From the NCBI GenBank assembly GCA_964528635.1, contig CAZGSW010000004.1, positions 5,667 to 37,666 of the forward strand: a DNA stretch of 32,000 nucleotides, in the 5' to 3' direction. The notes under the pieces are model-generated. The model had not been told where the DNA came from and searched no databases. It was given only the letters and a program-made list of their open reading frames with translations. How positions within the stretch are numbered: position 1 is the stretch's first letter; each line of letters opens with the position of its first letter. The position numbers and the translations under genes are program-made. The stretch comes from an uncultured Rhodoplanes sp. (lineage in GTDB: Bacteria; Pseudomonadota; Alphaproteobacteria; Rhizobiales; Xanthobacteraceae). Positions 3,950-26,881 of this stretch are shown piece by piece.

Positions 3950-4140
3950 TCACGCCGCCAAGGCTGGTTGTCCCCAGCATGGGGTATAGCGTTCCTCGGC
4001 TTCTGCCAGCGGGATGTTGCCGATTGGCTCAAGCAGCAGCCGGTTGTTGAACTAGTCCACTCATTCCAGCGTTGTGAACTCGACTGCTTCGAACGACCGC
4101 CACGGTTGACATGCTCCCCCAACATGCCCTCGGTCATAAG
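3950..4140 (-). pseudogene. IS3-family transposase (rve integrase) C-terminal remnant with in-frame stops
   Basis: Minus-strand reading gives ...PWRSFEAVEFTTLE*VD*FNNRLLLEPIGNIPLAEAEERYTPCWGQPALAA*. This matches the conserved IS3-family C-terminus (LEWVDWFNNRRLLEPIGNIPPAEAE). Both Trp positions are now stop codons (TGA 4061-4063, TAG 4052-4054). Confidence 0.65.
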
Positions 4141-4575
4141 GAGCATCTGTTCCAACTTTGCTCCTGATCGGGGCGTGCTGCGAACTCATTGGGCGTGAGA
4201 CCGTTCGGGCTCGTGTGCGGTCTGTTGGTGTTGTAGTCGATCCTCCATTCTTCGATGATCCGGCGCGCCTCATTGAGGATGCCGAACAGGTATTCGTTGA
4301 GGCACTCATCGCGCGGGCGCCCGTTGACGCTTTCCACCAACCCATTTCTGCATTGGTTTGCCGGACTCGGCGTAGTGCCATTCGATCGCACGCTCCTGCT
4401 GTCACGGTACACGACGTTGGAGGTGATCTCGCGGGTTCGTCCGAGAACTTCCTTCATCCAGTCGTGAAGCTGAAATGTGTGGACGCCCAAATCCTGCGAC
4501 GCCTGCATATACGACACGGCCAGGTCATTAATTGTCGGAGCCTCCTTGGATGTCGGAGCCTACTTGCCAATCTCA
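4134..4575 (-). pseudogene. internally deleted IS3-family element remnant (OrfA HTH fragment joined to an OrfB C-terminal fragment)
   Basis: 127-aa ORF. N-terminal SYMQASQDLGVHTFQLHDWMKE resembles the IS3 OrfA HTH. The C-terminal part NGLVESVNGRPRDECLNEYLFGILNEARRIIEEWRIDYNTNRPHTSPNGLTPNEFA resembles the IS3 OrfB end. The catalytic core between them is missing. An 18-nt tandem duplication lies at the upstream edge (4533-4561). Confidence 0.75.
4446..4521. repeat. left copy of a direct repeat (IS3 OrfA-derived) shared with 19133-19207
   Basis: Hand alignment with 19133-19207 gives about 80% identity over about 75 nt with one 1-nt indel, same orientation. Confidence 0.7.
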
Positions 4576-5247: not shown

Positions 5248-6387
5248 ATGCCAGAACAGTCCGCACATGGAGAACGAAGGGTGCGTCTCGATGAAAGTCC
5301 GACGCCACCGTCTTTTGAACAGGCGAAGACACGGCGTCAGCAGGCACGCGCCGCAGGACTGCACCCCGATCATTGGTATGCCGTCGAGTACGATTCCGCT
5401 CTCAAGGCCGGTTGCGTCATAGAAACCCACTTCTGGGGACGTTCGATCGCTTTGTTCCGGGGCGACGACGAGACCGTTCGGGCGATCGAGAACCGCTGTC
5501 TGCACCGTCAACTGAAGCTATCGCTCGGCGAAGTGAAGGGCTGCAACCTCGTGTGCGCGTATCACGGCTGGACGTACGACGGTTCCGGTAAGCTGGCAGC
5601 GGTTCCGCATGATCTGTTCGGTCACAAACAGCCTGCAGCCGGGCTGAGGTCCTTTCCGGTCAAGGTCCGATATGGACTGATCTGGATATTCCCAGGCGAT
5701 GCGCGGCTTGCCGACGCCACGCCGTTGCCGGATATCCCCGAACTCGAAGGTCCCGATGCCTGGGTCTGCGTGCCGCTCGATTTCACCTGGCAGGCGCACC
5801 ACTCGATGATCATCGAAAACGTCTGCGATTTCACGCACGCGCATCTGCATCGCGACTACCGGCCGATCAACGATGCGACACTGACGCTGCTCGAACCCGG
5901 CGAACGCCGCGTAAAACTCAGTTACGATGTGCTGGTGGGCGACGGCCAATTCTCCAGGCATTTCGTCGACCGCAACAAGGTCAAGGTCGACAAAATGGAA
6001 TTGTGCTTTGAGTACCCATATCAGTGGTCCAACACGGGCGACCGCATCAAGCACTGGTGCTTCTTTCTGCCAATCGACCGCCGGATCACTCGTGTCTTCT
6101 TTCTGTTCTATTTCGACGCGCTGCGAATTCCGGGAACGCATATTCCTATTCCGAAATGGCTGATGAAACCCGTTCTCAAAGCCGCCAACCGGATGATGAT
6201 CCGGCCGATCCTGATGCAGGATGGCGAAATGGTCGAGGCCGAGCAAAGGGCCTATGACTCGAACACGTCCGGTCCTGCAATCGAACTCAATCCCGCAGTT
6301 CTCGAATTCCAGAATCTGACGGTCCGCTCATGGCAACGGCATCTCGACGCCCCACAACTCCAACCGCGTGAGGCTCGTCTTGCGTAG
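5248..6387 (+). CDS. Rieske [2Fe-2S] non-haem-iron oxygenase; candidate sterol C-4 methyl oxidase (SdmA-like) by context
   Basis: 379 aa. Rieske motif CLHR-x16-CAYHGW. Mononuclear-iron region ENVCDFTHAHLH. First gene of a coupled operon with OSC and squalene epoxidase. Confidence 0.8.
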   Translation: MPEQSAHGERRVRLDESPTPPSFEQAKTRRQQARAAGLHPDHWYAVEYDSALKAGCVIETHFWGRSIALFRGDDETVRAIENRCLHRQLKLSLGEVKGCNLVCAYHGWTYDGSGKLAAVPHDLFGHKQPAAGLRSFPVKVRYGLIWIFPGDARLADATPLPDIPELEGPDAWVCVPLDFTWQAHHSMIIENVCDFTHAHLHRDYRPINDATLTLLEPGERRVKLSYDVLVGDGQFSRHFVDRNKVKVDKMELCFEYPYQWSNTGDRIKHWCFFLPIDRRITRVFFLFYFDALRIPGTHIPIPKWLMKPVLKAANRMMIRPILMQDGEMVEAEQRAYDSNTSGPAIELNPAVLEFQNLTVRSWQRHLDAPQLQPREARLA

Positions 6388-8380
6388 CGCCACCGTACCC
6401 AAACCGGTCGATAGCTCCTCGGATCTGGCAGCGGCGGCGCTTACGACACTTCAGAGGCAAGACGGCGGCTGGGAAGGTGAAGTCGTCTGGTGCCCAATCA
6501 TTACAGCCCAGGTTGTGATCTTGCATGTCATCGCAGACAAGCCAATCGCGGAAGAGCGGCGGCGTTTGCTGTTGAGACAGTTCGAGGTGACGCGCCGGCC
6601 TGACGGCGGCTGGGGATTGCATCCGGAATCGCACTCGTACCGATTTGTCACCACGTTGGTCTATGTCGCGGCGAGATTGCTTGGCGAGCCGCCGCACAGC
6701 CCGATGCTGAGCGAAGCGCGCGCATTGCTGGATCGCGAACCCGGCGGGATCTTCGGCCTGCCGCAGTGGGGCAAGGTGTGGCTTTCGTTCATCGGCCTGT
6801 TCGATCCGCGCGGACTGAAGCCGCTCCCGCCCGAGGTGTTCCTCCTTCCGCACTGGGCCCCGATCTCGCCGCAGCGGTATTATTGTCATACCCGCTACAT
6901 TTACCTGGTTATGTCGTACCTGGTTGGCTCGGGATACTCCGCAAACATCGGGCCTATCACCGACGAATTGCGCCGCGAACTCTTCGGTAATGCTCGCCCT
7001 GACGACGCGATCCGCCATCGTCATGATCTTGCATTGAGTGACTCCTACGTGCGTCCGAGCCGCATGCTTGTATCTCTATACGGTGCAATGTCCGCTTTTG
7101 GGAACATTGCAAAGTATCTGCCTGGGGCGGCGGCACTTCGACGCCGCGCGCTCGACACATGCATGAGGCAGATCGTTTTTGAACAGAGAAGCACAAACTA
7201 CCAGGGCATCTCTCCGGTAAGCAGCGTTCTGAACACGCTCGCGTTGCATGCGCAGGATGCGCACAGCGCGGATACCAGACACAGCTTCGACGGCATCGAA
7301 AGCTGGCGCTGGGACGACGAACACAGCGGCTCGCGCTATGCGGGCGCGCGCTCCACCACCTGGGATACCAGCTTTGCAATCCAGGCGCTGCTTGCAAGCG
7401 GGCACAAGACATCACTCAGGCACGCCGCATCATTGCGCCTCGCCTATCGGCGTCTGACCGAAATGCAGATGACGTCAGATCTTGACGGCGGCCGGGAGCA
7501 TGCGCGTGACACGATCCTGGGTGGCTGGTGCGTCAGCGATGGCACTCATCGATGGCCAGTCAGCGATTGCGCCGCCGAAGCGATCATCAGCCTGCTCGAT
7601 TGTCACGACGTGCCCGGATTGATCCCGGAACGCGACCGCTTGCCAGCATCCCGGCTGGATCAGGCTGCAGCCTTTATTCTCAGTCGGCAAAACGACGACG
7701 GCGGATTCGGCAGCTATGAGCGACGCCGCGGCGCCCGCTTCCTGGAACGGCTCAATCCATCGGAAATGTTCGGCCAGTGCATGACCGAACTGTCTTATGT
7801 CGAATGTACCGGCTCGTCGGTGCGCGCGCTCATCCGCCTGAAACGGCATGGTACGAATCTGCCTGCCTCGCAACTGCAGTCCGCCATCGATCGCGGACTA
7901 AGAATCATTTTGGATCGGCAGCGCCCGGATGGAAGTTGGCCGGGCTTTTGGGGCATCAATTTCATTTACGGCGCGCATTTTGCAGCCGCTGCGCTTGGCG
8001 AAGCCGGAGTCCCGCCCAGCCATCCCGCCCTGGCTCGAGCCGCCCGTTGGCTCAAGGGCGTCCAGCACGCGGACGGTGGCTGGGGCGAACACTTCTCCGG
8101 CTGCCTCGACGACACTTTCGTCGACCATCCCAGCAGTCTCATCAGCAGCACCGCATGGGCTTGCCTGACGCTGATGCATGTCGAACCAATTGTTTCGCCG
8201 GAACTGGAGCGAGGCATCGCATATCTGGTCGATCGTCAGCTCGAAGGGGGCGGCTTTCCGCGCGAAGGAGTCAACGGGGTGTTCTTTGGCACCGCCATGC
8301 TCGAGTACGCACTTTACAACAGCTACTTCCCGGCGATGGCGCTGGCGCAATTCGACAGGCTCCGCAATGGCAGACATTGA
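6368..8380 (+). CDS. oxidosqualene cyclase (lanosterol/cycloartenol-synthase type), not a squalene-hopene cyclase
   Basis: 670 aa. Catalytic motif WPVSDCAAEA is of the OSC VSDCTAE type, not the SHC DxDDTA type. OSC-type YYCHTRYIYLVMSYL. Several QW-type repeats (QNDDGGFGSYE, QRPDGSWPGFWG, QHADGGWGE, QLEGGGFPRE). GTG start at 6368 overlaps the upstream gene by 20 nt; the start is uncertain by a few codons. Confidence 0.9.
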   Translation: MRLVLRSATVPKPVDSSSDLAAAALTTLQRQDGGWEGEVVWCPIITAQVVILHVIADKPIAEERRRLLLRQFEVTRRPDGGWGLHPESHSYRFVTTLVYVAARLLGEPPHSPMLSEARALLDREPGGIFGLPQWGKVWLSFIGLFDPRGLKPLPPEVFLLPHWAPISPQRYYCHTRYIYLVMSYLVGSGYSANIGPITDELRRELFGNARPDDAIRHRHDLALSDSYVRPSRMLVSLYGAMSAFGNIAKYLPGAAALRRRALDTCMRQIVFEQRSTNYQGISPVSSVLNTLALHAQDAHSADTRHSFDGIESWRWDDEHSGSRYAGARSTTWDTSFAIQALLASGHKTSLRHAASLRLAYRRLTEMQMTSDLDGGREHARDTILGGWCVSDGTHRWPVSDCAAEAIISLLDCHDVPGLIPERDRLPASRLDQAAAFILSRQNDDGGFGSYERRRGARFLERLNPSEMFGQCMTELSYVECTGSSVRALIRLKRHGTNLPASQLQSAIDRGLRIILDRQRPDGSWPGFWGINFIYGAHFAAAALGEAGVPPSHPALARAARWLKGVQHADGGWGEHFSGCLDDTFVDHPSSLISSTAWACLTLMHVEPIVSPELERGIAYLVDRQLEGGGFPREGVNGVFFGTAMLEYALYNSYFPAMALAQFDRLRNGRH

Positions 8381-9701
8381 ATATGATGTCGTCATTGCCG
8401 GTGGCGGGATTGCCGGAGCGGCGGCCGCCGCCGCGCTTCGAGAATTCAATTTTTCCGTTCTGGTCGTCGAGCCCGGACAACATTCAGAGCGACGGCTTGG
8501 GGGCGAGTTGATTCATCCGGCTGGCGTGTCGGCGCTCAAGGAATTGGGGCTGTTCGACGAACGCGCCTTTGGCCGCGGGGTCTCAATCGCTGGCTTCGTT
8601 GCGCTGCCAGGTCTTCATGACGACTGGTCGGATATCCACCTGCCCTACGCAAGCGACTGGGGCCCTCGAAACGCAATCGCGCTGGACCACGGCACACTTC
8701 GAGCCACACTTTGGTCTGCGATCGAGGCTATGCCACATGTCACCACGATCCACGGCGGACGTGTGGTGGGCGTCGACAATTCGCCAACTTTTGTGCGGGT
8801 TGCGATCCAACAAGGGGCGCGGTCACATACCGTGACCGCACGGCTCCTGATCGCAGCCGACGGCGCATCCAGTGCGGTCCGCTCCCTTGCCGGAATAAAG
8901 CACAAGCGGCGCCCGATCTCCACGATCACAGGCTATCTGATCAGCGACGCCAATCTGCCCCATCCGGGCTTTGGTCACGTTTTCATGGGGGGCGCGGCCC
9001 CGTTGCTCGTCTACGAGATCGGCAACAGTCGCGCGCGAGTGCTGTTCGATCAACCTGTCGGGCAGTCTGCGGTACCTTGCCAGACACATCAGCGCCAGAT
9101 CGTTTCATGCGTGCCCTACCCCAGGCTTCGTGCCGAGATCGAAGCAGCCATGGCCGATCAGCGCGGCTTGCGTTTCGTCAGCGTCAATGTCGTTGTCGCG
9201 CGCTCAGCCCAGCACCGCATGGTGTTGATGGGCGATGCCGGAGGAAGCTGCCATCCGCTGACTGCGACCGGCATGACGGTCGGCATCATCGACGCTCTGC
9301 GGCTGCGCGACACCCTGCGATCCAGAAATCGGGACATTCCGGCTGCAATCGCCCTCTACGGTCGGCTTCGACGCGCACCGCAGCGGACGCGCCATCTGGT
9401 CGCTTCTGCTCTGCACGATGCGTGCAGCTCGACGGGCTCGGAGCAGATGTTGATTCGCGATGGTCTGGTTAACTACTGGCGGCGCAGTCCGCGCGGACGT
9501 CAGGCCAGCATGGCCATTCTGGCCATGAGCGATTACCGGATCGGGTCTGTGTTGCGCGAGATTCTGACGGTGATGAGCCATGGCATCGCGGCGCGATGGA
9601 CAGGCTGGTCGTTTGGCGGCGTCTTGCATGGACTCCGCATGATATCGGGCCTGACGGGAGTTCTGATACGCCAGGTCAGCTTCGCCATACGGGTTCGCTA
9701 G
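8367..9701 (+). CDS. squalene monooxygenase (squalene epoxidase), FAD-dependent
   Basis: ATG 8367 overlaps the OSC stop by 14 nt. FAD fold YDVVIAGGGIAGAAAAAAL. Also GGELIHPAGV, DGASSAVR and MGDAGGSCHPLTATGMTVGIIDA, as in squalene epoxidases. The 63 codons upstream in the ORF track overlap OSC and were not used. Confidence 0.85.
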   Translation: MADIEYDVVIAGGGIAGAAAAAALREFNFSVLVVEPGQHSERRLGGELIHPAGVSALKELGLFDERAFGRGVSIAGFVALPGLHDDWSDIHLPYASDWGPRNAIALDHGTLRATLWSAIEAMPHVTTIHGGRVVGVDNSPTFVRVAIQQGARSHTVTARLLIAADGASSAVRSLAGIKHKRRPISTITGYLISDANLPHPGFGHVFMGGAAPLLVYEIGNSRARVLFDQPVGQSAVPCQTHQRQIVSCVPYPRLRAEIEAAMADQRGLRFVSVNVVVARSAQHRMVLMGDAGGSCHPLTATGMTVGIIDALRLRDTLRSRNRDIPAAIALYGRLRRAPQRTRHLVASALHDACSSTGSEQMLIRDGLVNYWRRSPRGRQASMAILAMSDYRIGSVLREILTVMSHGIAARWTGWSFGGVLHGLRMISGLTGVLIRQVSFAIRVR

Positions 9702-9711
9702 AGGACACAGC

Positions 9712-10752
9712 ATGATTCTTGTAACCGGTGCGGCAGGACATCTCGGCGCAAATCTGCTGCGCCGTCTTCTGGCGGATGGCGAAACGGTTCGCATCATGCT
9801 CCGGACCGATGCTGAGCGCGCGACCGTCAATGGCCTGCCTGCCGGTATCGTCGTCGGCGATTTGCGCGATACGAACTTTGTCGCGGCAAGCACGCAAGGC
9901 TGCCGACAGATATTTCATTGCGCAGCGCGTGTCTCGACAGACCACAGAGGCAACAGCGACATCTTTGACATTAATGTTCTCGGCGCTCGCAACATCTTGA
10001 AGGCGGCACAGGCTGCCAAAATTGAGAAGGTGGTGGTTACGGGGTCCTTCAGTTCGGTCGGCATCCGCACCGATCGCGCCAGCAACGAGGACGATCCGTA
10101 CAATCCGCTGGACCCGCTGCTGCCCCAACAGTTGCCGTATTGGCGCACCAAGGCTGCCGTCGAGCACGAATGCCTCAAGGCTTTCGCCGAGGGTTTACCC
10201 GTGGTTGTCGCGATATCGACCGGCATTCTCGGTCCGAACGATTACAAGCCGTCTCGTATGGGACGGGTGCTGATCCGCTTCGCGCACGGACAGCTGAGGG
10301 CCTATATGCCCGGCGGAGTGCCCTTCGTCGCCGCCGATGATGTCGTTCAGGGCCACCTGCTGGCCATGCAGAAGGGTCGTCCGGGGCAACGCTACATTTT
10401 CTCGACCGCTGACATGACATTCGACGAATTGATGACAATCTATTCACGCGTTACCGGTCGTCGGGGTCCCCTGTTCCGGTTGCCTCCGTCCCTGATGACG
10501 GCGGCGGCGCATGCCGCCAGCGCACTCATGCCGTATGTCAACCCGCACGGCGAACAGCTTCTCACGCCTGCCGCAGTCCGTCTCCTTGCGCTGCATCGGC
10601 GCGCCGACACGTCGAAGGCGCAGCGCGAACTGGGATTTCGGCCGACCTCCATCGAGGTCGCCATAGAGCAGGCCTACAACTGGTTTTTGTCGCATGGAGT
10701 TATCGAGCCTCCGCCCGCGACCGCAAGCCGATCGGTGGAAGCATGGCGTTAG
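9712..10752 (+). CDS. NAD(P)-dependent extended SDR (3-beta-HSD / epimerase family); candidate sterol C-4 decarboxylase/reductase (SdmB-like) by context
   Basis: 346 aa. SD-like GAGGA upstream. Rossmann motif ILVTGAAGHLGANL. Catalytic YWRTK (YxxxK). Sits between squalene epoxidase and the flavoprotein in the coupled operon. Confidence 0.8.
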   Translation: MILVTGAAGHLGANLLRRLLADGETVRIMLRTDAERATVNGLPAGIVVGDLRDTNFVAASTQGCRQIFHCAARVSTDHRGNSDIFDINVLGARNILKAAQAAKIEKVVVTGSFSSVGIRTDRASNEDDPYNPLDPLLPQQLPYWRTKAAVEHECLKAFAEGLPVVVAISTGILGPNDYKPSRMGRVLIRFAHGQLRAYMPGGVPFVAADDVVQGHLLAMQKGRPGQRYIFSTADMTFDELMTIYSRVTGRRGPLFRLPPSLMTAAAHAASALMPYVNPHGEQLLTPAAVRLLALHRRADTSKAQRELGFRPTSIEVAIEQAYNWFLSHGVIEPPPATASRSVEAWR

Positions 10753-12002
10753 GAACGAAAGAGCATATTCACGACGTGTGCGTGGTCGGCGCAGGACCGG
10801 CGGGCGCGACCTGTGCCTATTATCTCGCACTCCATGGACGCGACGTCGTGATGCTGGAGCGCAAGGCGTTTCCCCGCGACAAGATCTGCGGTGACGCCGT
10901 GACCAGCCAGGCGCAAGTCCATCTGAGGCGGATGGGCGTACTGCAGCAGATCATCGACAACGACGAGGGGCACTTCGCTTCTGTCGGCGGCATGGTCAGC
11001 CCGGCTGGCTACAGTTACATCGCAAAATCGATCGATCACCTGGCATCGACCCAGGTTATTGCCATCAAACGCATGTTTCTCGACGTGCGGATTGCGCGGG
11101 CTGCCGAAACGGCAGGCGCATTGTTGGTCGAGGACTTCAACGTTGCTGACGCGGCATTCGATGCCGCATCTGGTGTCTGGACGATTTCGTCCGACGGCGC
11201 CAAGCACGCAATCCGTGCCCGCGCCCTTGTTGCGGCCGATGGAGCCCTGTCTCGCCTTGCACGGCGGCTGGGCTACGTGTCGGCACCGCCCGATGCGGTG
11301 TGCAGCCGGGCCTATGTGCGCGCCCGCACTACGAACTTCGATGCGGACGGCGTCGCCTACTATCCGAAGGATCTGCTACCTGGCTATTGCGCCATCTTTC
11401 GCGAGGCGCGCGATGAGTTGAATTTCTGCACCTACGTTATTCCAGGCGGCAATGCGATGGTCGACGACCTTCGCACAATGCACCACCGGATCTTGCGAGA
11501 CGATCATCATGTCCGCCGGGCGATCGGCCCCAATGCCGAGATTGACCCGATGAAGGGCGCGCCGCTCCGCTGCGGTGGTATCGAACGCAGCTATGGCGAC
11601 CACTTCGTCATCGTGGGAGATGCCGCCGGGCACATCGATCCTTTGACCGGCGAAGGCATCCAGTACGGCATGGACGCCGGCCAGTATGCGGCCGATACGC
11701 TGCACGAGGCTCTCGCAGCGGACGATTTGAGAGCACCGTCGTTGAAGGTCTATCAGGATCGTTGGGTGAAGCAGTTTGGACGCGACTTCGCCTGGTCGGC
11801 GTCCGTCGCCCGCATCTATTTGCGCTTCCCTGCCCTGCTCGATGCCAGTGCTCTGGCACTCCAGCGTCTTGGGCCCCCGTTGCTCGCGCGATGGGGGGAG
11901 ATCATGACAGGAGCGCGGCCAAAGACCGATTTCCTCAAGCCAGGCCTCTGGGCCCCCATCATGCGCGACCTGGTCGCGCTGCAGCTACGGTCTTCCACGT
12001 GA
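10743..12002 (+). CDS. geranylgeranyl-reductase-family FAD-dependent oxidoreductase; substrate unknown
   Basis: 419 aa. DVCVVGAGPAGATCAYYL (FAD), FPRDKICGDAV (GGR-type Cys motif), AADGALSRLAR, VGDAAGHIDPLTGEGIQYGMDAG. Overlaps the upstream gene by 10 nt and the downstream SMT by 4 nt. Confidence 0.8.
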   Translation: MALGTKEHIHDVCVVGAGPAGATCAYYLALHGRDVVMLERKAFPRDKICGDAVTSQAQVHLRRMGVLQQIIDNDEGHFASVGGMVSPAGYSYIAKSIDHLASTQVIAIKRMFLDVRIARAAETAGALLVEDFNVADAAFDAASGVWTISSDGAKHAIRARALVAADGALSRLARRLGYVSAPPDAVCSRAYVRARTTNFDADGVAYYPKDLLPGYCAIFREARDELNFCTYVIPGGNAMVDDLRTMHHRILRDDHHVRRAIGPNAEIDPMKGAPLRCGGIERSYGDHFVIVGDAAGHIDPLTGEGIQYGMDAGQYAADTLHEALAADDLRAPSLKVYQDRWVKQFGRDFAWSASVARIYLRFPALLDASALALQRLGPPLLARWGEIMTGARPKTDFLKPGLWAPIMRDLVALQLRSST

Positions 12003-13027
12003 GCACCCAGGACAAGGCCCCTGGTCTGGTCCAATTGCTGGGCAGGATGTCGCGGCGCGACCGCGTCTACCAGCGGACCGGCGAATATCTTGCCAGCCAT
12101 GGCGTTACGGCCGGCGCCGCCGGACGCGCCTCCCGCTACGCCGACGTAGTGAATGGCTACTTCGACCTCAGCACCGACTTTTACGAATTCGGGTGGGGTC
12201 AATCTTTTCATTTCGCCCAGCAGGCCAAAGGCGAAAATTTCCGGGATGCTATCATTCGTCATGAGCGCCGCCTGGTGGACACCTTGCAGCTTCGTCCCCA
12301 AATGACAGTGCTCGACGTCGGGTGCGGTGTCGGCGGTCCGATGCGCAACATTGCGCGAATGTCGGGCTGCTCGGTCGTTGGGATCAACAACAACACCTAT
12401 CAGGTGACCCGCGCCGGCCTGGCGAATGCTGACGCGGACCTGTCAGGCCGGTGCAGCGTTGTCCCGGGCGATTTCATGGCGATGGCTTTTCCGAACAGTT
12501 CGTTCGACGCAGCCTATGCCATTGAGGCGACCGTCCATGCTCCCGACTGGACAGGAGTCTTTCGCGAGGCCAACCGATGCCTGAAGCCTGGTGGCGGGTT
12601 TGCACTTTACGACTGGTGCATGACGGACCGGTATGACGACGGCAACTCATTTCATCGCGATCTGAAGCAGCGCATTATCGAGGGCAACGGCCTTGTCGAC
12701 ATCGGCACGTCGCAGCAATTGATTGCAGCAGTCCGTGCGGCCGGTTTCGAGATCATCGAACACCGCGATGCGGCAAGCGACGGCGGGGAGCCGTGGTATC
12801 AGCCGCTGGCACAGAGCGGACTATCGCTGTCATCGTTTCGTGCGTCGGTTTTCGGACGCAAATTGACGCGAGCTGCCCTGCAAACGATGGAGCTGCTCCG
12901 GCTTGCACCGGGCGGAGCTGCCGATATGGTGACCTTCCTCGACAAGGCGGCCGTGGCTTTGGTCGATAGCGGCAGAGCCGGTGTCTTTACACCGATGTAC
13001 TTTGTTCACGCTCGAAAGCGCGATTGA
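11999..13027 (+). CDS. sterol C-24 methyltransferase (ERG6/SMT family)
   Basis: SMT signature regions are present: YFDLSTDFYEFGWGQSFHFA, SAM site VLDVGCGVGGPMRNIARMSGCSVVGINNNTYQV, AYAIEATVHAP, LKPGGGFALYDWCMTDRYDDGNSFHRDLKQRIIEGNG. The start is either GTG 11999 (GTGA overlap with the upstream stop) or ATG 12047. Confidence 0.9.
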   Translation: MSTQDKAPGLVQLLGRMSRRDRVYQRTGEYLASHGVTAGAAGRASRYADVVNGYFDLSTDFYEFGWGQSFHFAQQAKGENFRDAIIRHERRLVDTLQLRPQMTVLDVGCGVGGPMRNIARMSGCSVVGINNNTYQVTRAGLANADADLSGRCSVVPGDFMAMAFPNSSFDAAYAIEATVHAPDWTGVFREANRCLKPGGGFALYDWCMTDRYDDGNSFHRDLKQRIIEGNGLVDIGTSQQLIAAVRAAGFEIIEHRDAASDGGEPWYQPLAQSGLSLSSFRASVFGRKLTRAALQTMELLRLAPGGAADMVTFLDKAAVALVDSGRAGVFTPMYFVHARKRD

Positions 13028-13124
13028 CCGAACGCCATAGGCGTGAAAGGCGTTCCCAGGCGCGCCGCGCTACTTAGGCACTGTCGAGCCATCCGCCGGA
13101 CTGTTCGGTGCCGGCAGCCGTCGT

Positions 13125-16100
13125 TCACCGGACCCGTCGACAGTTGCTTCCGGCTACCGGATATGGCGACGGAAACGTCGATGTGCTGGCGACGCCCATA
13201 ATCGAGTAGCTGACAGAGGTGCAGATATATTGGCCCGCGGCAGTCGGCTGACGCTGGCCAGGCGGGCGATGCACTGGAGGTGGACGGCGAACCTCCTGCG
13301 GCGTGGTGCAATTCCACCGGCCATTGCCGGCATAGCTTGTAGCGCGTGAGCGGACATGAACTTGCGTCTGACAGGCCCGATGACCGTCCGCCCAGGTGGG
13401 TGGCCTGCACTTGCGGTCGCGCATGACGTAACCGCCGCTGCATCCGCACTTATAGGTCGAGTTGGGATTGACAGCCATGGCATAGGCCTTGGTCCCGAAT
13501 TCGGTTTGGCATACCGGGTGTCCATCGGCGATCGTCTTTGGCCGCTGAACACAAACGGCAAGAATTTTGTCCAAGACGTAGCCGCTGTTGCATAGGCACA
13601 TCGGAGAAGCCGACATGGCCGTCGCCGGATCGATGTGGGCATTCGTACCGATCTGGAGCTTGCAGCGGTTATCCAAATCCGCGATTTTTTCGTTCTTTTC
13701 ACGATCCCGGCAGGTGCTGAGGGCCTGTATGAGGCGTTGCTTGACGCCACTGGCCGCCGGATTTGAGACTTCTTCCAGCGCCGCCCGCCAGCGCTCGATG
13801 CCCTCGACTTTGCAGGCGGTGACGGCCTGTTCGGCGTTGTTGATAGCGGTGCGAAGCTGGTCGATCCGGCTCAACGCGTTCGTCAGACGCTCGCGCAACT
13901 CGGCGCAGGAGGTGCCGTTCAGGCTTGCAAGCGCGCGCCGCGTCGTACTTTCGGCGGCGCTCAGATCTCCTGCGGCGAAACTTGCCCTGGCTCGCTCAAA
14001 GGCTGCGCTGGCATGGGTAATGGTCTCGCCTTTGGTGAACAGAGAAGTCAGCATCAGATGGGAGATGGATGCGTAACGATCCTTGAGACGGGCCACCTCC
14101 GTTGAGTCGCAGCGACCGATCGCACCGCTCACTTCCGACATGATGCTATCCAGGCGTTCGACCCTGGACATTCCTGTGGCGACCTTTCCAGCAAGTGCGA
14201 TGCAATCGACGCCATTGCCAATCCCGTCCAGCGCGGTTCTCGCGCGTCCTAGATCGGCCCTGGCGTCGTCCATTTTTCCGGCGTTGTAGGCCTGCTGCGC
14301 ATTTGCATAGGCGGCTTGCGCCTGGCTGACCGCTGCGGCGATCGGCTCGAGTCTGGCAATCTGTTCCCTGGCCGCATCGGAGCCATCGTCACGCAGCTTT
14401 GCCAGAATGTCGGCGTTCTGTTGCGGCTGGCAGGTCAGAGCAGCCACGGGCTTTGGTTTCAGCCATGCTTCGTTGAAGGCGACAAGTGCCTCGGCGGCGC
14501 ATCGCTCCATGCGAGCGATGGCTTCGCTCGTCGTCGATCTGATCGCATCGGGATCGAGCGTTGGCGACTGGGCTGCGGTTTCCGGGAGCGCAGGTACCGC
14601 TGCTCCGGCCGGGCATTTCGCGTCGATCCGGGCGATCACGCCACGCAATGCGTCCGGCGGCGGACTGAGGATCATGCTTCTTGACTGCCACGGCGCCATA
14701 TTCCTTGGCGCGCCATCCCCGCGGGGCGGGTCGATATCCTCTTTGGTCCAGCTTTCCTGAATCAGGGCATTGCACCCGATGTTGCTTGAGTTTCTCGTCA
14801 GCAGGCCGGCCAGGATCGTGCGCGGGCGCTCCCCGGCCGGCGACGCGGCAAGAGGCTGGAGGCAGGTCTTGATATCGTCGATGGACACCTTCACCGGCTG
14901 TTGCAGGTCGAAGACGTGCTTTTGCGCATCAGCCATGGCGCTGTGCGCGACCGTAAACCGGCCTCGGGCGCTGCCAAACTCACCGACGATACCATCGAGT
15001 TCACTTCGTATCGCGGCGAGCCGGGATTGCACCTTGGCACGCGCAGCAATCGCTAGCGCCGACGACGGCGGCGGTTGGGCGGCGCTATCGCTCGCCTTGA
15101 GGCCTGCAATTTCGCCGGCACCGGCCGTCAGTTCTCGTGCGACTATCTGCGCTTCGCGGGCGGTGGCAAGCGCGTCGTCCAGGTGAGCGCGCGCTTCCGC
15201 CTTGTTCTTGGCTTTACGGATTTCCTCCGGCGCAGCACAAACGGACTCCACCGCAGCATTCAACGCCGCGCTGTCCCTGGCGACTGACGCAGCGAGCCTC
15301 GCCGATTTCGCCGCATTGTCGCTGGCGGTCGTGTCCGGCGCCGGCAATTCGCACGCCGATGTATCCATTAATTCCAATCGCATGCGCAGATTGCTAGTCC
15401 GCGCCGACAGGTTGCCGCCGACCTCGAGTGCCTGCCGGGCCATAAGCTTGTTCTGCTCGTACCGTGAACAGTAATTGGCAATTCGGTGAGAAAGGCTTGC
15501 AATATGGTTCAGGTCGCCGTCGATCGCGGCCAGCGTTTCATCAAGTTTCTTTTCGAGCTCGAGAAGCTGCGCAGACAGTCCGTCCCATTGCTTGTCATCG
15601 AGCAAAGAGCCCGCAAGTTCATTCAGGCGGGCGTCCGTCAACGCGCCCGCAATTTGAGCCACCTCGGACATTTCCTTGTTCATCTCGGCCAGCTGAGGTT
15701 CAATGGCCTGCCCTATGGTCCTGCGCTGCGCGGCGATTTGGCGTGCCTTGGCGGCAATCCATCCGACCGGTGTCGACGCGTGGGGAAGTCCGCGTCGGTT
15801 GGCTTCAAGGAACTCCTTCAGGGCAAGGCCTTTATCGATGTCCATCTCTTGCGCCTGGTTGCCGAACTCGAACATGGCGGAAAATTTCGCATTCACGATG
15901 CAACCGTCGAAGGCCTCATAGGCGTCCGCGACATTGGTGGTGCGCGCGTATTCTTCCTTGTATTTGTCGATGCAGGGGCCGTCGCCGTGCGTCCAACTCG
16001 TCCGCAGGTAATTGGTGCCCCACTCGATCAGCGCAAATTCGGCATCGACAAGTTTGAGATAGATGTCGCCGGGAGTCAGCGCCGCCATTTTTGATGCAAA

Positions 16101-17129
16101 CAGATCTTGGGCCATTTTGGACGGCAAAAAATCGCCAATAGTGGCGGCACCTTTGCTGAGATCACCGAACCGGCTCGTCTTGCCAGCCTTGTTGACCTTT
16201 CCGGCAAAGCCGCCAATGCCGGCGACGCCGCCGAGATTATTCATAGTTGTCAGGGTGGAATTGAAATCATAGTTGTTGGCACTGAACGCAAAATTGATGG
16301 CGGCTTTCATGAGATCGCGGGTTTGGGCTTTGCCTTCCGCTTTCAATTCTTCGGTTATGATTTTCATGGCGTCGCTGCCGGATCCGCCATTTTTGAGCGC
16401 CAGCAATACGCGCTTGGCGGCGCCGGCATGTTTGACACCCCGGTCCCAGATGACCTTTGCATTGACCATCTTTTTTTCCTTGAGGACATCGCTCACGATG
16501 GTGGCGAAACTCAGCGCGCCCAAGTCGGCGCCGTGATCCACCACGGTGTAGTAGTCGCCAGCCGAAAGCGCGCCGGCAATTTCTCCCATTGCCGACGGGT
16601 TGGCCTTGATTGCGTCGTAAATGGCCCGCGCATACTTCGCTTTATAAGCTTCGATCAGGCTGGGTTTCGTGCGCTTTATCTCTTCGTCGATCAATTGACC
16701 GAGCGGTTTTCCCTTGCCTGACGCAAGCACCGCGCTGCCATCTGCCGCCCTGTCAAAAATGCGACTGGTCACAGAAGCCTTGTCGCGCTCCATTCGGTCT
16801 CTTGTAAAGATCCGCCGCTTCAGGTCTTCGGCCTTTTTCCGGGCTTCCGACTTTTCCAGGGTCTTCACGACGGCGGCATGGGCGGTCGTCAATTCCTGGC
16901 GCATCCACTCCAGCACCTGATCATGCTGGCTGGAATTGAGCATCTTGATCGGGTCACCGGCGTTACGCAGGTTGTCGCCGGGACTGGAGCTCCTGCCCAG
17001 CAAGTTCATCAACGTTTCGGCGAATGTCGCCCGCGGCAGCGCCGGGCAACTATTGGCAGCCTGCGACGAGTTGACGGGCCAACAGACAATTCCGATCGCC
17101 AGTAATGATACCAAACTTTTCAAGCGCAT
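13125..17129 (-). CDS. very large secreted protein: N-terminal unknown domain, long Ala-rich helical repeat region, Cys-rich C-terminal modules
   Basis: 1334-aa uninterrupted ORF. Signal peptide MRLKSLVSLLAIGIVCWPVNSSQA. Internal ~70-aa repeats (AQAAYANAQQAYNAGKMDDARADLGRARTALDG...C versus ASAAFERARASFAAGDLSAAESTTRRALASLNG..C). C-terminal CxC-x2-GYV modules. Starts 13 nt after the upstream gene. Confidence 0.8.
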   Translation of the reverse strand: MRLKSLVSLLAIGIVCWPVNSSQAANSCPALPRATFAETLMNLLGRSSSPGDNLRNAGDPIKMLNSSQHDQVLEWMRQELTTAHAAVVKTLEKSEARKKAEDLKRRIFTRDRMERDKASVTSRIFDRAADGSAVLASGKGKPLGQLIDEEIKRTKPSLIEAYKAKYARAIYDAIKANPSAMGEIAGALSAGDYYTVVDHGADLGALSFATIVSDVLKEKKMVNAKVIWDRGVKHAGAAKRVLLALKNGGSGSDAMKIITEELKAEGKAQTRDLMKAAINFAFSANNYDFNSTLTTMNNLGGVAGIGGFAGKVNKAGKTSRFGDLSKGAATIGDFLPSKMAQDLFASKMAALTPGDIYLKLVDAEFALIEWGTNYLRTSWTHGDGPCIDKYKEEYARTTNVADAYEAFDGCIVNAKFSAMFEFGNQAQEMDIDKGLALKEFLEANRRGLPHASTPVGWIAAKARQIAAQRRTIGQAIEPQLAEMNKEMSEVAQIAGALTDARLNELAGSLLDDKQWDGLSAQLLELEKKLDETLAAIDGDLNHIASLSHRIANYCSRYEQNKLMARQALEVGGNLSARTSNLRMRLELMDTSACELPAPDTTASDNAAKSARLAASVARDSAALNAAVESVCAAPEEIRKAKNKAEARAHLDDALATAREAQIVARELTAGAGEIAGLKASDSAAQPPPSSALAIAARAKVQSRLAAIRSELDGIVGEFGSARGRFTVAHSAMADAQKHVFDLQQPVKVSIDDIKTCLQPLAASPAGERPRTILAGLLTRNSSNIGCNALIQESWTKEDIDPPRGDGAPRNMAPWQSRSMILSPPPDALRGVIARIDAKCPAGAAVPALPETAAQSPTLDPDAIRSTTSEAIARMERCAAEALVAFNEAWLKPKPVAALTCQPQQNADILAKLRDDGSDAAREQIARLEPIAAAVSQAQAAYANAQQAYNAGKMDDARADLGRARTALDGIGNGVDCIALAGKVATGMSRVERLDSIMSEVSGAIGRCDSTEVARLKDRYASISHLMLTSLFTKGETITHASAAFERARASFAAGDLSAAESTTRRALASLNGTSCAELRERLTNALSRIDQLRTAINNAEQAVTACKVEGIERWRAALEEVSNPAASGVKQRLIQALSTCRDREKNEKIADLDNRCKLQIGTNAHIDPATAMSASPMCLCNSGYVLDKILAVCVQRPKTIADGHPVCQTEFGTKAYAMAVNPNSTYKCGCSGGYVMRDRKCRPPTWADGHRACQTQVHVRSRATSYAGNGRWNCTTPQEVRRPPPVHRPPGQRQPTAAGQYICTSVSYSIMGVASTSTFPSPYPVAGSNCRRVR

Positions 17130-21068: not shown

Positions 21069-22166
21069 TTAAGTATTTGATATCGCTAGCCCGCAGGGTA
21101 GCGGTGCAGGACTCGGCTTGTGTCCGTGCAAAAGACGACAAAACTCGGCAAAGATCAGGTTCCAGGATGCCACCCCATGCATCCTGATCCAAAACCGCAG
21201 TACATCCCGAACGCAATCTCTCAACGGTCGGTTTAGCGCCGTCGCCACCTGCTCCCATTCATGCCGGATGCTGAGCCAAGTCTGTTCATCGACATCTTCA
21301 ACAGCAAGGGTGTGGGCTACATCTGGGTGCCGGGCACCGCGTGCATACCGGGAATGAAACGCGCGAACAAAACCCTGCATAGCGTCAGCCCGCTTCACGC
21401 AATCGCCACCAATTTGAAGCGATTGTCGGAGAGCCGTATCCACTTCACCACGCAGCGCGGCTAGCCAGCACTCCGCGATCTGCTTTCCTTTGCCAAACCC
21501 GCATGCAGATAACGCCTCATTCACTCCTATCGCGCCGCCTATGATGCCTACCTGAAGAGACGCTTGCGCACGCCCAACCCACCCGTCGGAACCGCAGGCC
21601 AAGATTTCAAGCGCCCTGTCTTCATAATTCACACGGTGAGCGATGCATCTCGTTCGCAAGTCAGCCACAACTTCCCCGATGGGAGACGGGATCATTTCGT
21701 AAACCTGACATCGAGACTTGATGGCGGCACTCACCTTCATCATATCGGACGATAAAAACACAGCCACATGAAGCTCGATTTTCTCAAGCGGCTTCAGCAG
21801 CCGGTCCGATACTGGTCCCGGCAGGCACTCCGCGTTTCGCACAACCAAAACGAGGGGCTCCATCCCTACCGAACGAAGCTTGGTCAGTTGGTCACGAACG
21901 TGATCGTGTGAATGGTGCACTCGCGCGTCAAGCTCAATGTAACGCAGGGATCCGGCTGCCATAACCCCCTGGCAGTTCGAGCAAACACCGCATGGCTTTG
22001 TGGGCGATTGGCAAAGCACGCTCTTTGCGTAGAGCCTTGCAAGGCTCAATTTACCGGAGCCCTCGGGCCCCCATAGCATGAGGGGCCGATGCTTGCCGGC
22101 CGCGCTGCGCTCAAGCAAGGCCGCTACCACCACTTTCTGTCCGACGACATCGTTGAAATGCTTCAT
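21069..22166 (-). CDS. clamp-loader delta-prime (HolB)-like AAA+ protein with a degenerate ATP site
   Basis: 365 aa. FNDVVGQ, P-loop GPEGSGKL (Thr/Ser replaced by Leu), zinc module CQSPTKPCGVCSNC, Walker-B position LVLVVRNAE (no DE), retained SRC motif (KSRC). ATGA overlap with the upstream gene. Confidence 0.8.
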   Translation of the reverse strand: MKHFNDVVGQKVVVAALLERSAAGKHRPLMLWGPEGSGKLSLARLYAKSVLCQSPTKPCGVCSNCQGVMAAGSLRYIELDARVHHSHDHVRDQLTKLRSVGMEPLVLVVRNAECLPGPVSDRLLKPLEKIELHVAVFLSSDMMKVSAAIKSRCQVYEMIPSPIGEVVADLRTRCIAHRVNYEDRALEILACGSDGWVGRAQASLQVGIIGGAIGVNEALSACGFGKGKQIAECWLAALRGEVDTALRQSLQIGGDCVKRADAMQGFVRAFHSRYARGARHPDVAHTLAVEDVDEQTWLSIRHEWEQVATALNRPLRDCVRDVLRFWIRMHGVASWNLIFAEFCRLLHGHKPSPAPLPCGLAISNT

Positions 22167-23299
22167 TCTGTCGACGCAGCCGACTGAACATCTTGACCCG
22201 ACAGCAAGGCGGCAACATTCGACGAGGAACCAAGCTCGCTGGCGCTCCTAGCGCACGCACCTACAACCGCCTCAAACAACGAACGCCTCCTCTTTCCCAA
22301 GGCCGTTTCGAATTCGCCTCCAAACAAAGCATTCTTGAAACTCGAGGGCTCCCGCAACCATTCTTCGTCGTCGGTGGCCATGTGGTCACGGCACAGTCGC
22401 TCTACCGCAGGAACGAGCGGAGACGTTAAAAGCACACGCTCGCTCAACATCAATCGCAAAGCCCAGGAAATATACCGAGCCGGCGGCCCCAGTTTCTGCT
22501 TGTTGCGCCGATACCGCCTGTCCGTGCCGCAAATGGCCTTTTCGGTCGCGGAGTACAGCTCCGCGAGTATCGCAGAATTTGTCCTTAGTTTTTCCGTCTT
22601 CATGACATCGACCGCCTGCAGCAGCCGCCGAATTTGCAAATGCCCTCGGTCTTCAAGGAAATCCATGACGCATTCGTTGAGAACTTCGCCGCGGAGACTT
22701 CTTCGTTTGTTTGAGAGCTGGCTCGCGAAGGTCGGCGACAGGATTGTCATGTCGACCAGTTTCGCAATCTCCCCCAGCGACCATGACTTGTCCGCCAAGG
22801 TGGAACGAAGGATTCTAAAAGCGACCGCGTGAGCATTTCGGAACTGATCGTAGCCATTCCGCCGAACCAAAAACTCAAAGATTTCTTTCACATTGGATTT
22901 CGATACCCGGGGCTCCTCGATGATGACCGCGTTTGCTGCGGCGCTGGTCCATATTTCCGAAGATGCTTCATCGTCGTGGGCCCGAACAAAAATGCAAAAT
23001 GAACTCAATCGCCCGTTCAGCGCTATCACGTTTAAGGCTTCTACCAAAACTGCGTTTCGGCGCTCCGTTCCGACATCACACATCGCAAGCGTTTCACCGA
23101 AGAGGCCATCAACACTTAGTAGCTTCAGCGACAACTCGCTCGGCACCACAGTCTCCGCCATGACATGGCACGCCTCGGCCTCTTCAAGGATCCGCTCGCG
23201 AACGGGCGCCTTGAGATACCCGCTTCGGTAGCGATAAATGACCCGTATTCCGGGATGTGGGGAGGGATCCGACAGAAATCGAACATCAGACGTATTCAT
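22163..23299 (-). CDS. hypothetical protein; possible clamp-loader delta (HolA)-like subunit
   Basis: 378 aa with no P-loop. Size and position lie between the DnaX-like and delta-prime-like genes. Delta-like landmarks by eye: IRVIYRYRSGYLKAPVRERILEEA, DGLFGETLAMCDV, PRVSKSNVKEIFEFLVRRNG. Overlaps the upstream gene by 14 nt and the downstream gene by 4 nt. Confidence 0.7.
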   Translation of the reverse strand: MNTSDVRFLSDPSPHPGIRVIYRYRSGYLKAPVRERILEEAEACHVMAETVVPSELSLKLLSVDGLFGETLAMCDVGTERRNAVLVEALNVIALNGRLSSFCIFVRAHDDEASSEIWTSAAANAVIIEEPRVSKSNVKEIFEFLVRRNGYDQFRNAHAVAFRILRSTLADKSWSLGEIAKLVDMTILSPTFASQLSNKRRSLRGEVLNECVMDFLEDRGHLQIRRLLQAVDVMKTEKLRTNSAILAELYSATEKAICGTDRRYRRNKQKLGPPARYISWALRLMLSERVLLTSPLVPAVERLCRDHMATDDEEWLREPSSFKNALFGGEFETALGKRRRSLFEAVVGACARSASELGSSSNVAALLSGQDVQSAASTE

Positions 23300-25268: not shown

Positions 25269-25392
25269 GCAGTTACCATATCGTGCTTAGCATTGTGGCT
25301 GCCAGCGCGGTACTGATCGCACCGGCAAGGAGGCCCGTCGCACGGGCCGACCGTCTCACATACCGAAGCGTCGCGAAATGGTTCATCAGCAG

Positions 25393-25647
25393 CTACCCCC
25401 GCAATGAGGGCACTGCCGAAAAAGTTTCCGCAGGCGCCGGTGGCCCGCCTTCGGGCGGATGCACGCCGACGCATCCGGCCGCAGCAGCGTTAAGGGCGGC
25501 CTGAGGCCCCGCACCGTCGCGGTGCAGGGGGCCAGGCTTGCCCATTTCATCGAGCCCGAGAAGACCGTACTCGCGGCGCAGACGTGCCCGAATCTCGGGA
25601 TCGTCGATCTTGATGAGATCCCGTTGGAGAGCGGCAAAATTATTCAT
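25393..25647 (-). CDS. hypothetical small protein (84 aa), weak call
   Basis: ATG 25647 overlaps the upstream stop by 8 nt. Product is MNNFAALQRDLIKIDDPEIRARLRREYGLLGLDEMGKPGP... Its 3' end overlaps a competing 69-aa ORF (25265-25474). Confidence 0.35.
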   Translation of the reverse strand: MNNFAALQRDLIKIDDPEIRARLRREYGLLGLDEMGKPGPLHRDGAGPQAALNAAAAGCVGVHPPEGGPPAPAETFSAVPSLRG

Positions 25648-26218: not shown

Positions 26219-26258
26219 GAAATGGTTCTTTCGATTAATGGTTATGGTTCGCTGCTCG

Positions 26259-26854: not shown

Positions 26855-26881
26855 GAATTCTCCGCCCGGTCAGGAGAATTC
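26855..26881 (+). promoter_or_regulatory. perfect 9-bp inverted repeat covering the SD of the PD-(D/E)XK gene (RNA hairpin or operator)
   Basis: GAATTCTCC (26855-26863), 9-nt spacer, GGAGAATTC (26873-26881). The right arm contains the AGGAGA SD and ends 1 nt before ATG 26883. Confidence 0.35.

Follow-up and report, generated by a model that had tools for sequence, protein, structure and literature searches.

A methyltransferase-linked geranylgeranyl reductase-type flavoprotein from a bacterial sterol operon, a candidate sterol side-chain reductase distinct from Bsr

Saturation of the sterol side chain is catalyzed in eukaryotes by the canonical Δ24(25) and Δ24(28) reductases, DHCR24/DWF1 (FAD_binding_4) and ERG4 (ERG4/ERG24 membrane family), respectively. 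In bacteria, Lee and Welander (J Bacteriol 2025, PMC12004948) described a gene of the geranylgeranyl reductase (GGR) family in the sterol cluster of Sandaracinus amylolyticus and named it Bsr; its product (AKF09143) is a bacterial sterol C-24 reductase that reduces the Δ24 bond of zymosterol and desmosterol. Homologues of Bsr retain the GGR cysteine and the YxWxFP motif, and the Bsr clade, which adjoins MenJ, is confined to sterol-producing bacteria (PMC12004948). Since 2025, a GGR-type sterol side-chain reductase has been a known kind of enzyme. Here, we analyzed a 32,000-nucleotide stretch of DNA (the window) from an uncultured Rhodoplanes sp. (contig CAZGSW010000004.1), in which a sterol operon contains a gene for another GGR-superfamily flavoprotein (the window protein). 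An earlier sequence-only reading had proposed that this protein reduces the sterol side chain and that, no known sterol reductase resembling a GGR, this would be new enzymology. The claim of novelty is outdated, since Bsr is a GGR homologue reducing Δ24 (PMC12004948); the proposal itself stands as the function best supported by family and synteny, for a kind of enzyme that is already known. The window protein is a soluble GGR-superfamily FAD protein with the conserved cysteine and an altered YxWxFP motif. It is very probably a sterol-pathway enzyme, and we lean toward saturation of a side-chain double bond as its function. What is new is a distinct variant, marked by a specific active-site signature, by a genomic partner, the sterol C-24 methyltransferase (SMT), that sets it apart, and by a taxonomic reach much wider than that of Bsr.

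The window protein scored above the cut-off of the NCBIfam model TIGR02032, "geranylgeranyl reductase family" (170.0 bits for a cut-off of 158.8; E 9.4e-50), residues 11 to 319 aligning with positions 2 to 296 of the 297 in the profile. The second-best NCBIfam model, MenJ NF045655, gave 122.7 bits for a cut-off of 700, and the BchP/ChlP models TIGR02023 and TIGR02028 gave 98.3 bits (cut-off, 343.3) and 53.7 bits (cut-off, 505.3). All hydroxylase and halogenase NCBIfam models scored the protein far under their cut-offs. The halogenase profile PF04820 matched only residues 258 to 346, which belong to the shared GD region, with no single stretch significant alone, indicating that the protein lacks a full-length halogenase match. 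The GGR hallmarks listed by the sequence-only reading, VVGAGPAGATCA, RDKICGDAV and VGDAAGHIDPLTGEGIQYG, were all present in the translation. Five features were located with the help of an alignment of 28 sequences (A1; 64% mean column identity), of the solved Thermoplasma GGR structure 3OZ2 and of an AlphaFold2 (AF2) model:

10788 to 10805, + strand: FAD-binding GxGxxG motif (G16-A-G-P-A-G21), with G16, G18, P19 and G21 invariant in A1
10887 to 10889, + strand: Cys49, counterpart of the GGR active-site Cys, aligned to the Cys of 3OZ2 and invariant in A1
11385 to 11402, + strand: Y215-C-A217-I-F219-R220, altered form of the YxWxFP motif that positions the substrate in GGRs, with Ala for Trp and Arg for Pro; the aligned residues of 3OZ2 read GYIWVFP
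11616 to 11657, + strand: second FAD-binding (GD) motif, GDAAGHIDPLTGEG, with conserved residues in A1
11790 to 11999, + strand: family-specific C-terminal helical extension (residues ~350 to 419), delineated by conservation in A1 and by the AF2 model

In the GD motif, G292 to A295 and I298 to G305 were invariant in A1, G296 nearly so, and H297 variable. The C-terminal extension (~70 residues) contained the invariant residues W384, M388, G390, P393, K394, F397 and P400 and the near-invariant T389, and was predicted to be helical with pLDDT values of >90 except for the last residues. Members of the family sharing these features, referred to below as window-type proteins, are ~412 to 445 residues long. 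A motif census was performed on all full-length sequences collected, i.e., 242 window-type proteins, 94 proteins of a 364-residue Bsr-homologue type and 67 generic GGR/MenJ-like proteins. The YxWxFP motif, considered important for catalysis by GGRs and Bsr, was present in none of the 242 window-type proteins, among which the variants YxAxFR (174 proteins), YxAxFK (23 proteins) and YxSxFR (11 proteins) were found. It was present in all 94 proteins of the 364-residue type and in 46 of the 67 generic proteins. The equivalent of Cys49, which is Cys47 in the Thermoplasma and Sulfolobus GGRs, was kept in 235 of 242, 93 of 94 and 57 of 67 proteins of the three types, respectively. The C-terminal extension was missing from the 364-residue type and from most generic GGRs.

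The AF2 model (pLDDT 92.8) adopts a fold of the p-hydroxybenzoate hydroxylase type. Foldseek comparisons with the solved GGR structures 3OZ2, 3ATQ and 4OPx gave TMq values of 0.72 to 0.77 with root-mean-square deviations (rmsd) of ~4 Å. The best TM-scores and lowest rmsd were obtained with the Sulfolobus GGR (4opg/4opl; TMq 0.76 to 0.77, ~4.0 Å), the Thermoplasma GGR 3oz2 giving a TMq of 0.72 and an rmsd of 4.0 Å. The archaeal enzymes (Sulfolobus acidocaldarius, 3ATQ/4OPx; Thermoplasma acidophilum Ta0516, 3OZ2) thus share with the window protein the fold, the FAD motifs and the flavin-proximal Cys, but they are only 15 to 20% identical to it, retain the Trp and Pro of YxWxFP and function in the synthesis of archaeol rather than of sterols. 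MenJ (NF045655) and BchP/ChlP (TIGR02023) belong to the same superfamily; the window protein differs from them by its scores and by a genomic context devoid of quinone and chlorophyll genes. DHCR24/DWF1 and ERG4 would perform the same job, saturation of the side chain, with unrelated folds.

The window protein and Bsr were compared indirectly, by combining the identities of Table S2 of PMC12004948 with accession matches; the Bsr termini that follow from the primer sequences in print (MAEKIDAN... and ...RLMAQM) were absent among the 482 proteins that we retrieved. A Calothrix protein (P0184; BAZ11752/BAZ57897 from strains NIES-4071/4105) shares 54% identity with the window protein. Table S2 gives BAZ57897 an identity of only 24% to Bsr (E 9e-17), in comparison to 32 to 62% for the myxobacterial, actinobacterial and alphaproteobacterial homologues and 34% for the other cyanobacterial ones (PMC12004948). 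The 34% identical cyanobacterial proteins were found to be of another type, 364 residues long, represented by P0364 (WP_198123910, Amazonocrinis) and by BAZ50103 (Nostoc NIES-4103), which falls in the same cluster as P0364. Proteins of this type share only ~21% identity with the window protein (E 1.7e-6 by tblastn; 46 bits). Both types occur together in Nostoc sp. DSM 114161, in which a 364-residue-type gene (NOS364, 81% identical to P0364) lies directly upstream of a window-type gene (423 residues, 53% identical to the window protein) in a large sterol cluster. The intact 364-residue-type gene of Nostoc spans 8803 to 9897 of locus L081. In Calothrix NIES-4105 (locus L113, AP018290.1, 9458 to 9991), the 364-residue type is broken into 53- and 84-residue fragments directly upstream of an intact window-type gene, which explains the weak BLAST match of BAZ57897 in Table S2. 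The ERG4/ERG24 gene of that cluster is likewise reduced to a 171-residue fragment. Thus, by indirect measures (24% identity of BAZ57897 to Bsr and ~21% identity of NOS364 to the window protein), the window protein lacks the close relationship to Bsr seen for the members of the Bsr clade, and it has the Cys of Bsr homologues with an altered YxWxFP motif. On the basis of these comparisons, it belongs to a distinct GGR subfamily, separate from the Bsr branch.

The two types have in common that they are soluble GGR-superfamily FAD proteins of bacterial sterol clusters, with an active-site Cys and, as the likely substrate, a side-chain olefin. They differ in length (~420 residues with a C-terminal extension for the window type, ~365 to 385 residues for the Bsr type), in motif (YxAxFR versus YxWxFP), in partner (the window type is linked to SMT, whereas the characterized Bsr hosts make cholesterol) and in range (the window type has eukaryotic and Asgard homologues, whereas Bsr was reported from bacteria only). 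One group of possible Bsr orthologues was rejected. The ~400-residue proteins of Archangium/Myxococcaceae (loci L029, L037 and L045; 31 to 33% identical to the window protein) have no sterol neighbors, and they are nearer to Polyangiales window-type members (36%, E ~1e-52) than Bsr is to the Calothrix protein according to the published values (24%, E 9e-17). The "8,14-Bsr" of 2026 is an unrelated protein of the NTF2 family. Beyond the Bsr paper (PMC12004948), our literature search found nothing linking a GGR with SMT.

The gene for the window protein is part of a tightly packed operon of six genes:

5248 to 6387, + strand: SdmA-like Rieske oxygenase (sterol C-4 demethylation), first gene (PF00355 Rieske; PF19112 VanA_C)
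6368 to 8380, + strand: oxidosqualene cyclase (OSC; TIGR03463, 772 bits; N- and C-terminal SQHop_cyclase domains)
8370 to 9701, + strand: squalene monooxygenase (SQMO; PF08491 SE, 78.6 bits; PF01494, 62 bits)
9712 to 10752, + strand: SdmB-like NAD(P)-dependent short-chain dehydrogenase/reductase (SDR)/3-beta-hydroxysteroid dehydrogenase (matches to NF052578, PF01370 and PF01073)
10743 to 12002, + strand: GGR-superfamily flavoprotein of the window-type subfamily (~420 residues), candidate sterol side-chain reductase (TIGR02032, AF2 model, synteny)
11999 to 13027, + strand: SMT, last gene, with a GTG start (PF08498 Sterol_MT_C, 69.2 bits; methyltransferase domains)

The SdmA-like protein scored 358.8 bits against NF052579 (4beta-methylsterol monooxygenase SdmA) and the SdmB-like protein 264.5 bits against NF052578 (SdmB), both under the equivalog cut-off of 600. 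The OSC gene overlaps the SdmA-like gene by 20 nucleotides, and its last 11 nucleotides are shared with the SQMO gene, which starts with the ATG at 8370. The GGR gene encodes 419 residues from the ATG at 10743, immediately preceded by the purine-rich sequence GGTGGAAG. It shares 10 nucleotides with the SdmB-like gene (TAG stop at 10750 to 10752), and its TGA stop (12000 to 12002) shares GTGA with the GTG at 11999. The latter codon was assigned as the SMT start because the SMT homologue of the closest related locus, L014, aligns from SMT residue 1 (67% identity over residues 1 to 340); the SMT gene of L014 shows the same 4-nucleotide overlap with its GGR gene. The search retrieved 3744 homologues of the GGR protein in the database, indicating that the gene is real and conserved. 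Scans of the operon for promoter-like and terminator-like sites gave counts at or below chance (0 versus 2.6 expected and 5 versus 6.8 expected, respectively). The overlaps with both neighbors noted by the sequence-only reading were thus read in the sequence, and its "almost certain" co-translation is better stated as follows: within this single operon, the arrangement of the start and stop codons suggests that the GGR gene is tightly, and probably translationally, coupled to the genes for sterol enzymes.

Association with sterol genes extends to most of the window-type loci collected. A scan of genome contigs with generic GGR patterns revealed at least 7 window-type loci among the 80 listed, and a scan of metagenomes with an alignment designated A3 gave 23 loci, mostly short. 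In a set of 39 distinct window-type loci, including the window, neighbors were identified by tblastn comparison to a set of proteins of sterol synthesis. Sterol genes, one or more per locus, were detected in 29 of the 39 loci, a co-localization resembling that of bsr. The remaining 10 loci comprised 5 short contigs and 5 loci with full 10-kb flanks; these five, which encode the most distant members (45 to 49% identity), comprise two from Asgard metagenome-assembled genomes (MAGs), two from Polyangiales and one from Leptospirales. When at least 3 kb was available on both sides, 11 of 16 loci were sterol clusters. An SMT or SMT-like methyltransferase gene was present in 10 of these 11 clusters and adjacent to the GGR gene in 9. 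SMT-linked loci were found in Alphaproteobacteria (the window, L014, L001 and L110), Cyanobacteria (L081 and L113), Planctomycetes (L099) and Myxococcales (L083), as well as in L111; L083, from a Myxococcales MAG, consists of an isolated and divergent SMT-GGR pair with no further sterol gene nearby. All members with at least 51% identity to the window protein and enough flanking sequence have a sterol gene neighborhood; they come from Alphaproteobacteria, Rokubacteria, Planctomycetes, Myxococcota and Cyanobacteria. Co-occurrence of homologues with SMT and sterol genes in other genomes, which the sequence-only reading had put forward as a test, was therefore observed in many unrelated genomes.

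A gene of the ERG4/ERG24 family adjoins the window-type gene in 9 loci. In L085, whose window-type protein is 58% identical, the adjacent ERG4/24 protein matched the Δ14-sterol reductase 4QUV (E 4e-61), indicating that the GGR probably does not cover the Δ14 step. The closest relative, L014 (76% identity), has the gene order SdmA-OSC-SQMO-SdmB-CYP51-SdmA2-ERG4/24-GGR-SMT. In comparison to L014, the window lacks both CYP51 and the Δ14-reductase-like gene but has kept the GGR-SMT pair. A role of the GGR as a Δ14 reductase was rejected on these grounds, since a separate Δ14-reductase-like ERG4/24 accompanies it elsewhere and the window is devoid of both that gene and CYP51. Contrary to ERG4, the ERG4/ERG24 proteins encoded beside window-type genes in other loci look Δ14-reductase-like, and the window encodes none.

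The gene content of the window also narrows the choice of substrates. No CYP51, ERG4/24, ERG2 or EBP gene was found in the window, so that the pathway should make no Δ14, Δ7 or Δ5 bond. Without CYP51 and desaturases, the sterols made by the operon are expected to carry only a tetrasubstituted Δ8 (or Δ9(11)) bond and a side-chain olefin. Elimination of the other bonds leaves the side-chain olefin as the only ordinary substrate for a reductase. The side-chain Δ24(25) bond lies in a terminal prenyl unit, the type of substrate reduced by GGRs and Bsr. The precedent of Bsr (PMC12004948) supports a side-chain reductase. The candidate bonds are Δ24(25) or the Δ24(28) and Δ25(27) bonds left by SMT. 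SMT uses the Δ24(25) bond, and bacterial SMTs give products of both kinds, Δ24(28) and Δ25(27) (PMC10070321). The conserved SMT-GGR pairing favors action after methylation, and linkage of the two genes makes reduction of Δ24(28) by the window protein plausible. That the SMT product is the natural substrate is a tentative proposal, with the odds somewhat against it.

Several observations weigh against a sterol side-chain reductase. The window type has lost YxWxFP, a motif to which importance is ascribed in the catalysis of GGRs and Bsr. Halogenases and class A monooxygenases are about as close to the window protein as GGRs by sequence and by Foldseek E-value. Members at 45 to 49% identity occur without sterol genes within 10 kb. 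One full-flank sterol cluster with a window-type gene, L003, contains no SMT gene, which argues against strict dependence on methylation. Cytochrome P450 reductase (CPR) also feeds eukaryotic squalene epoxidase, so that the fusions of eukaryotic window-type domains to a CPR-like module (see below) are compatible with a reductase and an oxygenase alike. Finally, fast reduction of Δ24(25) would deplete the substrate of the neighboring SMT.

The L003 cluster is what would be expected if the window protein were the equivalent of Bsr, that is, a plain Δ24(25) sterol reductase recruited from another GGR branch with no special tie to side-chain methylation, an explanation that we consider rather unlikely. 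Calothrix NIES-4105 also speaks for it: the window-type gene is the only intact GGR-type gene of its sterol cluster, Lee and Welander gave its product as the "bsr homolog" of that genome (PMC12004948), and the strain was once seen to contain cholesterol and C-24-saturated intermediates, a result that its authors call inconclusive (PMC10202945). The same combination of an intact window-type gene, a fragmented 364-residue-type gene and C-24-saturated sterols seen once counts for side-chain reduction in general. The retention of both types in tandem in Nostoc argues for different jobs, however, and so does the presence of an SMT or SMT-like gene in nearly all full-flank sterol clusters speak against independence from methylation. 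A fast Δ24(25) reductase co-translated with SMT would be expected to compete for its substrate. A different chemistry, in which the protein is a flavin monooxygenase, an epoxidase or a halogenase-like enzyme oxidizing the sterol side chain or squalene (e.g., by 24,25-epoxidation or 25-hydroxylation), appears improbable; the sequence-only reading had raised an epoxidase or hydroxylase as an alternative. In its favor, the top sequence matches in the PDB are flavin-dependent halogenases, PltA (E 8.5e-16) ranking slightly ahead of the Thermoplasma GGR (E 1.4e-12), the Foldseek E-values are equal for the two groups, the Trp and Pro of the GGR motif are lost, and 25-hydroxycholesterol was reported from Calothrix extracts (PMC10202945); the CPR supply of eukaryotic squalene epoxidase, mentioned above, also fits. 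Against it, TM-score and rmsd are best for GGRs, the halogenases superimposing with rmsd of 5.3 to 6.8 Å, and TIGR02032 is the model passed above its trusted cut-off, those for hydroxylases and halogenases failing by far. The GGR-type Cys is almost universal in the family, whereas PltA carries a Val at that position. The halogenase motif is WxWxIP, as opposed to YCAIFR in the window protein. The operon already encodes a dedicated SQMO. The halogenases PltA, Mpy16, Bmp2 and ChlB4, the nearest solved structures by sequence E-value, also function in pyrrole or polyketide synthesis rather than in sterol synthesis.

We regard as very improbable a role on a non-sterol isoprenoid, be it the menaquinone side chain, as for MenJ, or a polyprenyl or geranylgeranyl lipid, with the position in the operon being incidental or reflecting precursor supply. 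In favor of such a role, several homologues have been named "menaquinone-9 beta-reductase" by JGI, the NCBIfam model ranking second is MenJ NF045655, and sterol neighbors are lacking for the homologues of Asgard archaea, Polyangiales and Leptospirales; the members at 45 to 49% identity may indeed act in this way. For the window protein, the score against MenJ is far from the cut-off (122.7 versus 700 bits), as is that against BchP/ChlP (98 versus 343 bits), the gene shares nucleotides with a sterol gene at its start as well as at its stop codon, and the synteny of the closer members (at least 51% identity, sufficient flank) is with sterol genes throughout. Side-chain saturation of a sterol therefore remains the function toward which we lean.

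For such a reaction, a mechanism can be proposed by analogy with the archaeal GGRs and Bsr. An external donor would reduce the bound FAD, the flavin would transfer hydride to one of the two carbons of the double bond, and the region of the conserved Cys49 would provide a proton. The donor in bacteria may be ferredoxin, flavodoxin or NAD(P)H, and in several eukaryotic homologues a fused flavodoxin/ferredoxin-NADP reductase module would pass on electrons from NADPH. The Trp-to-Ala and Pro-to-Arg replacements, together with the extra C-terminal helices, may adapt the shape of the substrate pocket to sterols whose side chain is branched, the loss of the Trp in the substrate-positioning motif making room for the branched C-24.

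The window-type family is not restricted to bacteria. An exhaustive search among representative sequences yielded 218 clusters at E <1e-30, many of the representatives being 470 to 547 residues long with an N-terminal hydrophobic extension and others 1044 to 1076 residues long. Eukaryotic members were found in Amoebozoa (Clastostelium and Cavostelium), Heterolobosea (Willaertia magna, from the NCBI genome), green algae (Tetraselmis and Chloroparvula), a diatom (Seminavis robusta), a labyrinthulid (Mucochytrium quahogii), a gregarine (Digyalum) and Apiculatamorpha. In the long forms (P0213 and P0353, the latter from Mucochytrium), the window-type domain is combined with the Pfam domains Flavodoxin_1, FAD_binding_1 and NAD_binding_1, which form a P450-reductase-like module, indicating that the window-type domain needs an input of electrons. 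In protists (Amoebozoa, Heterolobosea, green algae, diatoms, labyrinthulids and the gregarine), the enzyme would carry an N-terminal membrane anchor or a fused P450-reductase module. Proteins from Asgard/Heimdall MAGs are 49 to 50% identical to the window protein and are encoded in housekeeping gene contexts. The Seminavis robusta protein (P0225, 39.5% identical) is annotated "Conditioned medium factor receptor 1", the name of Dictyostelium CMFR1; the likeness lies in this annotation only, and a literature search found no link between CMFR1 and sterols.

Sterol clusters have recruited from at least two distant GGR branches, in some cases with the two genes next to each other. The relatives of the window-type branch in eukaryotes and Asgard archaea qualify the published view of GGR-type sterol reduction as confined to bacteria. 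To our knowledge, no enzyme has been assigned to the saturation of alkylated side chains in bacteria. Recurrently adjacent to SMT, small and soluble, the window-type family is an obvious candidate. A doubtful but consequential extension is that this ~420-residue GGR subfamily represents a third class of sterol side-chain reductases, common to bacteria and protists, that saturates the SMT-alkylated side chain at Δ24(28) or Δ25(27). If so, the GGR-type sterol reductase would not be exclusive to bacteria, with a bearing on the assembly of the sterol pathway around eukaryogenesis. In the sterols that give rise to preserved steranes, the chemistry of the side chain depends on the reductases present. 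SMT-carrying bacteria can make 24-alkyl sterols, which complicates the use of side-chain-alkylated steranes as biomarkers of eukaryotes or sponges (PMC10070321).

Additional genes were noted in the window-type loci. In Cyanobacteria and Planctomycetes, the methyltransferase adjoining the window-type GGR is an SMT-like protein of ~292 to 298 residues (L081, 11328 to 12224; L113, 11326 to 12204; L099, 10486 to 11367; L100, 1000 to 1872) that shares 44% identity with the window SMT in an alignment of 164 residues and has no Sterol_MT_C domain. The cyanobacterial sterol clusters also encode an oxidoreductase of 485 to 488 residues with FAD_binding_4 and ALO domains (L081, 15912 to 17369; L113, 16398 to 17864), which may act on sterols, in the manner of DHCR24 or otherwise, and would then be a third candidate side-chain enzyme there. 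The sterol operon of L110 (Acetobacteraceae MAG, JAXMCD010000003.1) starts with a gene for an AMP-binding enzyme, contains two Coq4-family genes between OSC and SQMO (7246 to 8711) and continues after the GGR gene with genes for a P450, an unannotated protein of 344 residues and an acyl-carrier-like PP-binding protein (11311 to 14053); these extra genes hint at acylation or conjugation of sterols. Locus L075 (9818 to 12493), from a MAG of the Methylococcaceae (CAZXXC010000080.1), a family with sterol-producing methanotrophs, has an open reading frame (ORF) of 891 residues whose translation appears to be a fusion, in which a GGR-like flavoprotein (YGWIFP motif; ~30% identical to the window protein) is followed by an NAD-dependent epimerase/SDR-like domain at the C terminus. 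This fusion may be due to a frameshift or an assembly artifact.

Other genes were noted around the operon in the window. An ORF of 127 residues on the - strand (4134 to 4517; ...NTNRPHTSPNGLTPNEFA), ~700 nucleotides upstream of the operon, resembles by inspection the C-terminal part of the core of IS3-type transposases/integrases. Directly downstream of SMT and convergent with it, an ORF of 1334 residues (13125 to 17129, - strand) gave no credible Pfam or PADLOC match. Three consecutive genes on the - strand (21069 to 25268) encode a 660-residue AAA+/DNA_pol3_delta2-like protein, a 378-residue protein without matches and a 365-residue DNA_pol3_delta2-like protein, next to a gene for a PD-(D/E)XK nuclease (26883 to 27842, + strand; PF20796, 342 bits). 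PADLOC gave no real match for this group (21069 to 27842), which could be a further module for defense or of a mobile element. A Gabija anti-phage system occupies positions 28740 to 32000 on the - strand, comprising the UvrD-like helicase GajB (28740 to 30659; 832 bits to PDLC00111) and GajA (from 30656 to beyond the window end; 547 bits). The match to GajA covers only profile positions 342 to 729, indicating that the gene runs off the window and that its listed TTG start is not real. Together, the IS3-type-like ORF and the downstream defense genes suggest that the sterol operon resides in a variable or mobile region of the genome.

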